The notes under the pieces are model-generated. The model made no database searches. It was not told where the DNA came from and was given only the letters and a program-made list of their open reading frames with translations. Below are positions 236-4,151 of a stretch of 4,266 bases of DNA, piece by piece. The position numbers were made by a program, and so were the translations under genes. Source of the DNA: a virus (Duplodnaviria > Heunggongvirae > Uroviricota > Caudoviricetes); IMG/VR virus record IMGVR_UViG_2547132272_000018. One strand, given 5' to 3'. Every line of letters starts with the position of its first letter. Positions within the stretch are counted from its first letter, which is position 1.

Positions 236-2646
236 GCCATGCTGATATGAACAACTGCAGCGGCTTTAACGAGGCCGCCGCAGCATTCTCATGGAACAGC
301 CCGAAAAAGGCTATTAACCCTTATCTGGACCCGGCGGAAGTTGCGCCGGTTTCTGCGCTTTCAAACCTGATCACTCTGTACGCTGTCGATAACGAGCAGG
401 AACAACTGCGTCGCGAGGCACTGAGTGATCAGGTCTGGGAGCGTTATTTCTTTAATGAATCCCGTGATCCTGTCCACCGCGAAATGGAGCAGGATAAGCT
501 CATTAGCCGGGCAAAGATGGCGCATGAGCAGCAGCGTTTTAATCCAGACATGGTCATTCTGGCTGACGTCAACGCCCAGCCTTCCCATATCAGCAAGCCG
601 CTGATGCAACGTATTGAATATTTAAGCAGCTTGGGCAGGCCAAAGGCTTATTCCCGCTATTTGCGTGAGACGATTAAGCCATGTCTGGAACGACTGGAGC
701 ATGTACGCGACAGCCAGCTATCTGCATCTTTTCGTTTTATGGCAAGCCATGAAGGGCTGGACGGTCTGCTGATCCTGCCTGAAATGAGTCAGGATCAGGT
801 GAAACGCCTGTCTACCCTTGTCGCTGCGCATATGAGCATGTGTCTTGATGCCGCTTGTGGTGATTTGTACGCCTCCGATGATGTTAAGCCAGAAGAAATC
901 CGCAAGACATGGGAAAAGGTGGCTGCAGAAACCCTGCGACTGGATGTCATACCGCCTGCGTTTGAGCAACTCCGCCGGAAAAGAAACCGCCGCAAACCTG
1001 TGCCTTATGAACTCATTCCGGGTTCGCTGGCGCGTATGCTGTGCGCCGACTGGTGGTATCGGAAATTATGGAAGATGCGTTGCGAATGGCGAGAAGAGCA
1101 GTTGCGTGCTGTCTGCCTGGTCAGCAAAAAAGCATCTCCCTATGTCAGCTATGAAGCCGTGATGCATAAACGTGAGCAGCGCCGTAAGTCGCTGGAGTTT
1201 TTCCGTTTTCATGAACTGGTGAACGAAGACGGCGACACGCTGGATATGGAAGATGTGGTAAACGCCAGCAGCAGCAACCCTGCGCATCGCCGCAATGAGA
1301 TGATGGCCTGTGTTAAAGGTCTGGAGCTTATCGCGGAAATGCGCGGTGACTGCGCCGTTTTCTATACCATCACCTGTCCGTCACGTTTCCATTCCACGCT
1401 AAATAACGGCAGGCCCAACCCGACCTGGACAAATGCGACGGTAAGACAAAGCAGCGATTATCTGGTCGGCATGTTTGCTGCATTTCGTAAGGCGATGCAC
1501 AAAGCCGGATTGCGCTGGTATGGCGTGCGGGTGGCTGAGCCGCATCATGACGGTACAGTTCACTGGCACCTGTTGTGTTTCATGCGCAAAAAAGACCGCC
1601 GCGCCATTACTGCATTGTTGCGTAAATTTGCCATCCGTGAAGACCGCGAGGAGCTGGGTAATAACACAGGTCCACGCTTTAAATCTGAGCTGATAAACCC
1701 GCGCAAAGGAACACCGACAAGCTACATCGCGAAATACATCAGTAAGAACATTGACGGGCGTGGTCTGGCTGGCGAGATCAGCAAGGAAACGGGTAAATCC
1801 CTGCGTGATAACGCTGAATACGTTAATGCCTGGGCGTCTCTGCATCGTGTTCAGCAATTCCGCTTCTTTGGCATTCCGGGGCGTCAGGCTTACCGTGAAC
1901 TGCGATTGCTGGCTGGTCAGGCGGCAAGGCAACAGGGCGACAAAAAAGCAGGTGCGCCGGTACTGGATAACCCGCGCCTTGATGCCATCCTGGCTGCTGC
2001 TGATGCTGGTTGTTTTGCCACCTACATCATGAAGCAGGGCGGCGTACTGGTTTCCCGCAAATATCACCTGATCAGAACCGCTTATGAAATCAACGAAGAG
2101 CCGACCGCCTATGGCGATCACGGCATTCGTATTTATGGCATCTGGTCACCCATTGCAGAGGGCAAGATCTGCACTCATGCCGTGAAGTGGAAAATGGTTC
2201 GTAAGGCCGTTGACGTTCAGGAGGCGGCAGCCGACCAGGGCGCTTGCGCCCCTTGGACTCGTGGCAATAACTGTCCCCTTGCTGAAAATTTGAACCAACA
2301 AGGGAAAGACAAATCAGCTGATGGGGATACCAGGACGGACATTACCCGCATGGATGACAAGGAGTTGCACGATTACCTGCACAGTATGAGCAAAAAAGAG
2401 CGCCGGGAACTGGCTGCAAGGTTACGCCTGGTGAAACCGAAACGGCGTAAAGACTACAAACAGCGAATTACAGACCATCAGCGACAGCAGCTCGTCTACG
2501 AACTGAAGTCCAGAGGATTTGATGGCAGCGAGAAAGAGGTCGATTTACTCCTTCGCGGCGGCAGTATTCCGTCAGGAGCAGGCCTGCGTATCTTCTATCG
2601 GAACCAGCGTTTGCAGGAAGATGATAAGTGGCGAAACCTGTATTAA
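232..2646 (+). CDS. A: P2/186-family replication initiation endonuclease gpA (rolling-circle HUH nickase)
   Basis: 804-codon ORF with GGAG (221..224) 7 nt upstream of the ATG. Contains the HUH metal-binding motif [13 protein letters not shown] (H444-W-H446, nt 1561..1569) and the twin-tyrosine motif [13 protein letters not shown] (Y498 and Y502, nt 1723..1737), both nearly identical to motifs I recall from P2 gpA. The N-terminal FSWNSP region also resembles P2 gpA. Confidence 0.93.
2248..2267 (+). other. Candidate origin of replication (gpA nick site) inside the gene A coding sequence
   Basis: GCCCCTTGGACTCGTGGCAA matches 15 of 20 positions of the P2 ori nick region as I recall it (GCGCCTCGGAGTCCTGTCAA). 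It encodes APWTRGNNC, which aligns with APRSPVNNC in P2 gpA. P2-family phages place ori inside gene A. The reference sequence is from memory and unverified. Confidence 0.3.
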
Positions 2647-2998: not shown

Positions 2999-3232
2999 AT
3001 GCGCATTGAAATAATGATCGATAAAGAGCAGAAGATTAGCCAGTCTACCCTGGACGCCCTTGAATCCGAGCTTTACCGCAATCTGCGCCCCCTGTATCCA
3101 AAAACGGTAATTCGTATCCGCAAAGGTAGCTCTAACGGTGTGGAACTGACCGGACTGCAACTGGACGAAGAAAGAAAACAAGTGATGAAAATTTTGCAGA
3201 AGGTGTGGGAAGACGACAGCTGGCTGCATTGA
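2999..3232 (+). CDS. dinI: DinI-family SOS-inducible protein (Tum C-terminal-domain-like)
   Basis: 77 aa starting MRIEIMIDK and ending ILQKVWEDDSWLH, matching E. coli DinI (MRIEVTIAK ... ILQETWESADDWF) in the N-terminal block, the DALxxEL block and the C-terminal acidic-Trp block. SD GAGGTGA (2987..2993) lies 5 nt before the ATG. It is the inner start of listed ORF 2927..3232. Confidence 0.85.
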   Translation: MRIEIMIDKEQKISQSTLDALESELYRNLRPLYPKTVIRIRKGSSNGVELTGLQLDEERKQVMKILQKVWEDDSWLH

Positions 3233-3286
3233 TTTTGTCAATAGACGCTTGTTTTTACTAATCAAAAAGGGTTACATATGAGTGAG

Positions 3287-3319
3287 AGGCGATGTCAATC
3301 AGATATCGCCTTGTTTTTT
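3287..3319 (+). terminator. Rho-independent terminator ending the SOS module
   Basis: Stem 3287..3296 pairs with 3302..3311 (AGGCGATGTC / GACATCGCCT-type, one G-U pair), 5-nt loop, then TGTTTTTT at 3312..3319. Confidence 0.6.
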
Positions 3320-3345: not shown

Positions 3346-4023
3346 ATGAAAATTAATAATGTAGCGTTACCAATATCTCTTGCTGTAATCCTAACTGGTT
3401 GCGTGCCACATGCTTCTAACCGAAATATCACTGCTATTGAAGTGGTGAAGCCAGCTATTGGGCAAAGTGCTACCGCCTACATGGGCGATCCCATTATCAC
3501 ATCTGCTACTGGATTTAAAACGGACGTACTAGAACTTGGTGCGGCTAATGGTGCATTGTCTTCTATCGCTGCTGGTACATATTGCAGTGAGGGGAATGGA
3601 ATTTACCGCAATTATCATAACCCTCAAGCTGTTGCGTTAAAAAATCTCTATGGGCAAATCGGTAACTATGTTGATTATGTTAGTTACGATGCTGCAAAAA
3701 ATGAGATATCACCGCCAAATGGCACTTCTTATACTGCATCAGAAATTTCTATCAAACGTGTTCCTGATGGGCTGTGTCGAGTGAGTAATTCATTGGTTAA
3801 GACTATCGAATACAATGGAAATGCAGGCGGTGTAATGAAGTTCACCTATCGTGAATTTGCAAACGATATGGCTCGTGCAGCATTTACAACAGATTTTTCT
3901 GTAGATTCTAAGGGAAGTGATGTTATCGCTTACAAAGGTGCCAAGTTCAAAGTGAACAAGGCTGATAACTCGTCTATTTCTTATACAATTATTTCTGGCT
4001 TTGACAAGGCTGTCACGTTCTAG
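3346..4023 (+). CDS. Putative lipoprotein of unknown function, 225 aa precursor; prophage cargo
   Basis: Begins MKINNVALPISLAVILTGC: a basic n-region, hydrophobic core and LTGC lipobox, with Val rather than Asp at +2 (suggesting outer-membrane sorting). Weak SD AGG at 3337..3339. Visibly more AT-rich than gene A. Two further Cys residues, Tyr/Asn/Gly-rich, C-terminal Phe. The listed ORF starts at ATG 3292, but that start lies inside the upstream terminator stem and would bury the signal peptide. Confidence 0.7.
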   Translation: MKINNVALPISLAVILTGCVPHASNRNITAIEVVKPAIGQSATAYMGDPIITSATGFKTDVLELGAANGALSSIAAGTYCSEGNGIYRNYHNPQAVALKNLYGQIGNYVDYVSYDAAKNEISPPNGTSYTASEISIKRVPDGLCRVSNSLVKTIEYNGNAGGVMKFTYREFANDMARAAFTTDFSVDSKGSDVIAYKGAKFKVNKADNSSISYTIISGFDKAVTF

Positions 4024-4127: not shown

Positions 4128-4151
4128 GCCCGCCAGTTCTGGCGGGCTTTT
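4128..4151 (+). terminator. Rho-independent terminator after the lipoprotein gene
   Basis: GCCCGCCAG (4128..4136) and CTGGCGGGC (4139..4147) form a GC-rich inverted repeat followed by TTTT at 4148..4151. Confidence 0.65.

Follow-up and report, generated by a model that had tools for sequence, protein, structure and literature searches.

We identified a probable replication origin in a 4,266-bp stretch of viral DNA (IMG/VR virus record IMGVR_UViG_2547132272_000018; the whole stretch is called the window here). Positions 2238-2276 of the window, which lie inside gene A, are very probably a functional rolling-circle origin of a Fels-2-like phage of the P2 family, as judged from sequence comparison. 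Gene A encodes an intact HUH/two-tyrosine (Y2) initiator, and the site combines a core that is constrained at the DNA level, at the position of the annotated P2 nick, with a covarying stem located 3-5 nucleotides (nt) upstream. At the sequence level, the window represents the early region of a P2-family phage of the Fels-2/RE2010 type: over 98% of its 4,266 bp it is 97-98% identical to records of Klebsiella and Salmonella phages of the P2 family (KP12, 4LV2017 and RE2010), and it is 90% identical to Fels-2. The features that carry the argument are as follows.

232-2646, + strand: gene A, encoding a gpA-like rolling-circle initiator of 804 amino acids (aa), a two-tyrosine HUH endonuclease; the gene contains the origin
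1561-1569, + strand: HUH metal-binding motif, codons H444-W445-H446, in columns invariant against P2 and 186
1723-1737, + strand: catalytic tyrosine pair, codons Y498-I-A-K-Y502, with Y498, K501 and Y502 invariant against P2 and 186
2238-2251, + strand: inverted repeat GGGCGC-tt-GCGCCC (arms 2238-2243 and 2246-2251, loop 2244-2245)
2251-2276, + strand: ori core conserved at the DNA level, CCTTGGACTCGTGGCAATAACTGTCC, a class II variant, at the entropy minimum of the gene; it overlaps 2248-2267, flagged in a first-pass annotation
2252-2254, + strand: spacer CTT from the stem base to the core GGA, 3-5 nt long in nearly all family members
2255-2256, + strand: predicted scissile bond TTG^GAC between G2255 and G2256, within codon W675 (TGG, 2254-2256), to within 1 nt on either side

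The initiator and the origin core

The gpA open reading frame (ORF; 232-2646) is a full-length match to Phage_GPA (Pfam PF05840, E = 1.5e-126). Its product is 98.8% identical to the replication protein of Klebsiella phage KP12 and, in a MAFFT alignment of the three proteins, 31% identical to P2 gpA and 35% identical to 186 A. The tyrosine pair of motif C is the active site of P2 A (PMC3986222). A sequence search with gpA found no homologue in the PDB, so recognition of the origin cannot be read off a structure.

The first-pass annotation had proposed a candidate origin within gene A at 2248-2267 (GCCCCTTGGACTCGTGGCAA), based on a resemblance to the P2 nick region and on an encoded peptide that aligns with P2 gpA. 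We compared the window with the P2 nick in GenBank (AF063097:29892), the 186 origin (U32222:28576) and the 21-mer annotated as rep_origin in fiAA91-ss (GCGCCTCGGAGTCCTGTCAAT). The flagged segment matches the P2 ori 20-mer GCGCCTCGGAGTCCTGTCAA, which spans the P2 nick and is annotated within the fiAA91-ss rep_origin, at 15 of 20 positions, and this is the top match in the window on both strands. Taken alone the 20-mer match is marginal, as 3% of 500 windows simulated with a first-order Markov model reach 15 matches. Lengthening the comparison to the 27-mer that ends in AATAACTGT brings the match to P2 to 22 of 27; the runner-up in the window has 15, and none of 500 simulations reaches 22 (maximum 19). 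The alignment to published origins that the annotation had proposed as a check thus gave a match to P2 beyond the range of the simulations. The peptide comparison held as well: APWTRGNNC in the window aligns with AAPRSPVNNC in P2 and APSRSSVNNC in 186, with N679, N680 and C681 invariant among the three, and tblastn alignments with P2-like gpA genes extend to residue 681. The flagged position, 3' of the catalytic domain, is homologous to the nick sites annotated in P2 and 186, and the ori regions of the P2-like phage records that match the window (loci L086 and L104) are the same as that of the window from -40 to +27, with no difference.

To this pairwise evidence a family-wide comparison can be added. 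Our sample comprised 80 gpA loci from one-genome-per-species bacterial contigs, to which phage records were added. The phages added were P2, 186, fiAA91-ss, Wphi, K139, RE2010, Fels-2, phiE12-2, PHL101, Aeromonas A051, Vibrio phages and ACA1, together with two PM2-like tectiviricete phages, Kp4861-1, P88, SI7 and HP1; a scan of viral contigs with K139 Rep as the query yielded near-identical loci only. In 104 of 105 loci, the gpA gene has a single copy of a 19-nt core, which is in frame on the coding strand, and at the sole exception (L034) the contig end cuts the gene before the ori position. The core is also present in the four phages added later (Kp4861-1, P88, SI7 and HP1). We then measured third-position entropy in 7-codon windows across 56 codon-aligned gpA genes whose proteins are less than 90% identical. 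The lowest values in the whole gene belong to the windows starting at 2251 and 2254 (covering 2251-2274), with 0.075 bits each, compared with a gene median of 1.65 bits and 0.87 bits for the best window outside the ori, which is the HUH motif. Third positions are frozen here though the proteins are only 30-40% identical, indicating a constraint on the DNA and not only on the peptide. The candidate therefore lies in homologous codons of an intact gpA gene, at the strongest DNA-level constraint in the gene family.

Some points count against a functional origin at this site. Of 27 positions, the core of the window departs from that of P2 at five, including three immediately 3' of the nick; for this phage clade we infer cleavage, strand and exact bond by analogy. 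For the P2 family, it is textbook knowledge that the origin lies within gene A at this motif; the nick-site sequence is conserved among Peduovirinae, and similar homology calls have been published (PMC3986222; PMC8537503). No rep_origin is annotated in the Felsduovirus records we examined (RE2010 and Fels-2).

We also considered phiCTX, a P2-like Pseudomonas phage, as a further comparison. Its early region (L110, 22000-35580) has a DNA primase gene (orf37) and no gpA homologue, and it was dropped for this reason. This type of origin is thus not universal among P2-like phages.

The stem-loop upstream of the core

The first-pass annotation had also noted a short GC palindrome just upstream of the candidate (GGCGCTTGCGCC, 2239-2250). 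The palindrome is present, and its extent had been put one pair too short, as the repeat GGGCGC-tt-GCGCCC occupies 2238-2251; the same bases have an alternative fold with 5 bp and a 4-nt loop. As DNA, 2226-2280 folds at -9.3 kcal/mol, which is not above chance (z = -0.64 against dinucleotide shuffles). Because the fold of this single window is unremarkable, the case for the palindrome is a comparative one.

We searched 80 distinct ori regions for perfect stems that end 3-5 nt upstream of the core GGA, using 167,059 anchors in the same genes as controls. Stems of at least 6 bp are present at 53 of the 80 origins compared with 0.70% of controls (binomial P 7e-94), and stems of at least 5 bp at 63 of the 80 compared with 2.3% (binomial P 8e-87). 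The longer stems are also found in 31 of 48 representatives that are less than 90% identical. Among the origins of the family there are 22 distinct stem sequences, including GGGCGC/GCGCCC (window), GGGCGAC/GTCGCCC, GCGGC/GCCGC (P2), GCGCC/GGCGC, GGCGGC/GCCGCC (K139), GGAATC/GATTCC (a Vibrio phage), GGGGAGC/GCTCCCC (PHL101), CGGTGC/GCACCG (Gallibacterium), GCGACGCG/CGCGTCGC, GCGCAC/GTGCGC (HP1) and GGGCGGC/GCCGCCC (P88). Stems with unrelated sequences persist in HP1, K139, PHL101, phiE12-2, ACA1 and P88. Of the 17 origins without a perfect stem by this criterion, nine still have one in altered form: it contains a single mismatch, is set off by a longer spacer or precedes a tandem duplication.

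A MAFFT alignment of 56 ori regions was ungapped, and one register cannot fit all of the loop and arm lengths. For lack of a common register, we used the anchored stem statistics and two geometry classes, not RNAalifold, and counted pairs in ungapped alignments anchored at the core. These classes were chosen by the presence of a stem in the given register, and with that selection the 18 sequences whose 18-nt hairpin is followed by a 3-nt spacer have 99.2% of cells paired, compared with 66.5% in shuffles. All seven pairs of this class are changed on both sides, and its covariation score is reached by none of 500 shuffles. The other class, 11 sequences with a 15-nt hairpin and a 4-nt spacer, shows 100% pairing, with three of six pairs doubly changed. 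Compared with synonymous-codon shuffles, the median stability is -7.8 versus -4.4 kcal/mol. The peptides encoded by the stems are very diverse (GACAP, GDPVAP, GIAAP, SASGAP, DANASP, SVRSTA, GELAPP and others), which argues that DNA pairing drives the peptide and not the reverse.

Other observations weigh against a function of the stem-loop, in addition to the way in which the geometry classes were chosen and the unremarkable fold of the window. Only 38% of the sequences are individually in the top 5% of their synonymous-codon shuffles, because the Gly-Ala...Ala-Pro codons themselves favour GGCGC...GCGCC. About eight lineages (L036, L046, L065, L070, L072, L076, L079 and L099) have no convincing stem at this place, and some of the stemless lineages have an apparently intact gpA. 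Furthermore, P2 A cuts short single-stranded oligonucleotides without the 5' arm, and the stem is probably dispensable for the chemistry. On balance, we lean towards the stem-loop being a functional part of the origin, a judgement drawn from the comparative data.

The alternative that survives best accepts the core as the origin and takes the inverted repeat as a functionless by-product of GC-rich Gly/Ala/Pro codons. It would account for a window fold that is no better than shuffles, for the 62% of sequences that rank outside the top 5% of synonymous shuffles, and for the several lineages without a stem. However, the 22 different stems stand at a fixed distance from the core, and among them are stems that contain AT pairs and encode unrelated peptides (GGAATC/GATTCC, GGGGAGC/GCTCCCC, CGGTGC/GCACCG and GCGCAC/GTGCGC). 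In addition, compensatory double changes affect 7 of 7 pairs (0 of 500 shuffles), and anchored stems are ~100-fold commoner than at control anchors in the same genes. We therefore consider a mere by-product unlikely.

It is also quite improbable that the sequence is a true ori in a defective prophage remnant whose origin is no longer used. The window covers only 4.3 kb, which leaves room for such a reading, but gpA is full length with all catalytic residues, and the 97-98% identity is to complete phage genomes, among them RE2010 and Klebsiella phages that are recorded as isolates or induced prophages.

Very unlikely, in our assessment, is a role of the stem-loop in the gene A mRNA (for example in pausing, stability or translational control) and not in DNA. 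The hairpin is on the sense strand, as an RNA element would be. Single mismatches in otherwise good stems are mostly sense-strand G.T (four computed cases, and L019 by eye), compared with one weak A.C case, and this pattern fits G.U pairs too. A single-stranded DNA hairpin predicts the same strand bias, however, and the mismatches hint that it is the sense strand that folds, although counts of 4-5 versus 1 are too small to decide. Moreover, no T-run or ribosome-related signal follows the stem, and the stem is coupled at 3-5 nt to a core that is a known DNA nick site in P2 (PMC8537503).

Conservation of the peptide APWTRGNNC alone, with the true origin elsewhere, is hardly credible: although the segment is coding, N679, N680 and C681 are invariant and the 20-mer match by itself is marginal (15 of 20, reached by 3% of simulations), third positions at 2251-2274 stand at 0.075 bits against at least 0.87 bits in catalytic motifs with invariant amino acids, base pairing just upstream is preserved although the amino acids encoded there vary freely, and the annotated P2 nick falls at the homologous position.

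Nick position, mechanism and core classes

The first-pass annotation had placed the nick between 2256 and 2257, which is probably one base too far 3', as homology to the P2 and 186 annotations points to the bond between 2255 and 2256. The P2 rep_origin (29892) falls on the first G of CGG and that of 186 (28576) on the second G, while the phiX174 rep_origin (4306) is the A after CAACTTG, the base 3' of the known G^A bond. The simplest reconciliation is that the P2 record marks the 5' base and the 186 record the 3' base, which puts the bond between the two Gs. Against this assignment, the two GenBank coordinates are one base apart at a homologous position, so that the nick is placed to within 1 nt on either side. 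From these sequence records, the G^G bond (TTG^GAC) is the likely site of cleavage.

Three independent tandem duplications (6, 6 and 8 nt) are found at the predicted nick, and all of them can start at the +1 base.

L070:3090-3116: CCTTG/GAGTTC/GAGTTC/TGTC, 6-nt duplication with a unique phase
L017:3471-3499: CCTTG/GACTCG/GACTCG/TGGC, 6-nt duplication
L071:2940-2968: CTCG/GAGTTTTG/GAGTTTTG/TCAATAAC, 8-nt duplication

These duplications may be scars of mis-terminated rolling-circle rounds, since late cleavage followed by religation to the +1 end at termination would produce exactly such duplications. Under the scar model, the L070 and L017 duplications are incompatible with a GG^A bond. The duplications thus appear to favour the G^G bond, as independent, circumstantial support.

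By homology to P2 and phiX174, we propose that gpA (232-2646) would cut the sense (+) strand at TTG^GAC (between 2255 and 2256, to within 1 nt) and that Y498 or Y502 would join covalently to the 5' phosphate. The free 3'-OH would prime leading-strand rolling-circle synthesis; after one round, the second tyrosine would cut the regenerated site and the displaced strand would be religated. The putative element has two parts. The first is a single-stranded recognition core, CYTYGG-N12-AATAACTG, which is nearly invariant in DNA and takes the form GGACTCGTGGCAATAAC in the window. The second is the GC-rich stem-loop, with its base 3-5 nt 5' of the core. The stem-loop could be recognized by its shape, or could aid extrusion or melting in supercoiled DNA and in the displaced strand, and would position the scissile bond; it might present the site by supercoil extrusion or as a displaced-strand hairpin at termination.

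With respect to the core, most genes (those of P2, 186, K139 and others) carry class I, GGAGTYCTGTCAATAAC, while the window and all Fels-2-like genes, those of Fels-2 and RE2010 included, carry class II, GGACTCGTGGCAATAAC. Cores identical to that of the window are found in Reipivirus Kp4861-1 (63% protein identity) and P88 (42%), and related class II forms in phiE12-2 (GGACTCGTGTC...), HP1 and PHL101 (GGACTTGTGTCAGTAAC) and ACA1. By its sequence, the window is therefore assigned as an example of a second, widespread core class. As a separate observation, PM2-like tectiviricete phages (order Vinavirales), namely Corticovirus Cr39582 and Vibrio phage 10N.261.45.F7_PE001, encode gpA homologues and have a third core variant, GGAGCACTGAAAATAACTG, at the same place (L099:2051-2069 and L102:2141-2159). 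L102 keeps a stem with one G.T (GAGGCGC-gga-GCGTCTC), and Cr39582 is without a clear stem.

A broader reading is possible but doubtful. It holds that the GC stem-loop is an undescribed, structure-recognized and essential origin element of the whole gpA family (P2, 186, HP1, K139, Fels-2 and others), acting in a relaxase-like, hairpin-then-nick manner; that the core classes (GGAGTYCTGTC and GGACTNGTGKY) are initiator-origin specificity groups; and that the +1 duplications are scars of mis-termination. A full-text search for the ori string returned unrelated primer sequences only, and keyword searches of the literature on the origin returned general statements only. The texts searched, a set that did not extend to the primary P2 papers, make no mention of a hairpin with compensatory changes, of two core classes or of duplication scars. 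Novelty cannot be claimed for these three, of which the hairpin is the only one that might be new.

The location of the origin allows annotators to mark rep_origin in Felsduovirus and related genomes. It also calls for caution with recoding or deletion within gene A, where ~40 nt would act in cis. From the hairpin shared across the family and the pair of core classes, testable hypotheses can be drawn on how gpA-type HUH initiators find and open their site.

Neighbouring genes and comparison with known origins

The other features of the window lie on both sides of gene A.

Upstream of gene A: 3' end of a Dam-like methylase gene, whose stop overlaps the gene A start (ATGA, 229-235); the RE2010 annotation is alike
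2800-2988: small ORF
2999-3232: DinI homologue (Pfam E = 4.6e-23)
3346-4023: lipoprotein-like ORF with a lipoprotein-type signal, MKINNVALPISLAVILTGC; its Fels-2 counterpart is STM2726

According to the GenBank record of 186 (U32222), translation of the upstream orf84 is needed for translation of A, and by analogy gene A may be translationally coupled to the upstream methylase gene here. A LexA-box-like sequence, CTGTGAATATAAACAG (CTGT-N8-ACAG), is located at 2741-2756 in an AT-rich intergenic region upstream of the small ORF and the DinI homologue; together with the latter it parallels 186, which has the LexA-controlled p95/tum operon downstream of gene A. The ORF at 3346-4023 has no Pfam match and is probably a cargo or lysogenic-conversion gene. 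Between it and the DinI homologue we observed a terminator-like hairpin (3286-3312) with an 11-bp stem followed by GTTTTTTGTC, which overlaps the alternative upstream start at 3292. Downstream of the lipoprotein-like ORF, at ~4128-4151, a stem-loop (GCCCGCC-agttct-GGCGGGC) followed by TTTT resembles a terminator for this ORF; with 4 T only, it was not listed by the terminator scan.

Among known origins, that of P2 is the closest reference. Like the candidate in the window, it lies in homologous codons of the gene of its own HUH, two-tyrosine initiator, shares 22 of 27 positions across GCGCCTCGGAGTCCTGTCAATAACTGT, and has a GC stem-loop just 5' (GCGGC-atc-GCCGC in P2). Relative to the P2 core, the window has C>T at -2, G>C, C>G and T>G 3' of the nick, and one more change 5'. 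The stem sequence also differs, the loop is 2 nt compared with 3 nt and the spacer 3 nt compared with 5 nt, and the window gpA, 31% identical, is 43 aa longer.

The 186 origin (U32222:28576), which its record places by similarity to P2 and in agreement with electron microscopy, shares its position and architecture with the window, and 186 has a LexA-controlled SOS operon downstream of gene A. Its stem (AGGGCGC-ttct-GCGCCCT) is nearly that of the window (GGGCGC-tt-GCGCCC). In contrast, 186 has a class I core (GGAGTTCTGTCAATAAC compared with GGACTCGTGGCAATAAC) and, downstream, tum in place of the DinI homologue.

The core type GGACT-N-GTG is common to the window and to HP1, Mannheimia PHL101, Burkholderia phiE12-2, E. 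coli P88 and Klebsiella Kp4861-1, whose class II origins are unannotated and were located in this analysis. As in the window, their stems lie 3 nt (in some, 7 nt) before the core, whereas the stem sequences of HP1 (GCGCAC/GTGCGC), PHL101 (GGGGAGC/GCTCCCC) and P88 (GGGCGGC/GCCGCCC) are unrelated to that of the window. HP1 and PHL101 have GTCAGTAAC where the window has GGCAATAAC.

The phiX174 initiator belongs to the same Pfam family (PMC5714925). Its origin in gene A (G4305^A4306) is likewise inside the initiator gene and on the sense (viral) strand, with CTTG^ at the nick and AATAAC downstream. The 30-nt phiX174 origin, CAACTTG^ATATTAATAAC, has the order recognition, spacer, binding. AATAAC is at +6 there compared with +11 in the window, a spacing difference of 5 nt; and, unlike the window, phiX174 has no GC stem abutting the site and has a single-stranded DNA genome. 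By eye, we observed a 5-bp inverted repeat (GCACA-atgctacaa-TGTGC) that ends 12 nt before the G^A nick (L105:77-106, corresponding to 4276-4305), outside the classical 30-nt origin.

In pT181 and pC194 plasmids and in CRESS-DNA viruses, the nick lies in a hairpin loop. This is not so here: the predicted nick is 4-6 nt 3' of the stem, the loops of the family stems are 2-4 nt and variable, and the conserved core is 3' of the stem, not in the loop. Conjugative relaxases are HUH tyrosine nucleases as well, and their nic sites (TrwC of R388, TraI of F) have an inverted repeat a few nt upstream of the nick, the cleaved bond itself falling in the 3' single-stranded tail. These enzymes belong to another protein family and act in another process, and the stem-nick spacing is ~8 nt compared with 4-6 nt here. 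The relaxase-type geometry, an inverted repeat 5' of the nick, is nevertheless found in the window, while hairpin binding by gpA is only putative. In its predicted stem/nick geometry, the origin in the window thus resembles the relaxase nic site more than a plasmid origin with the nick in the loop.

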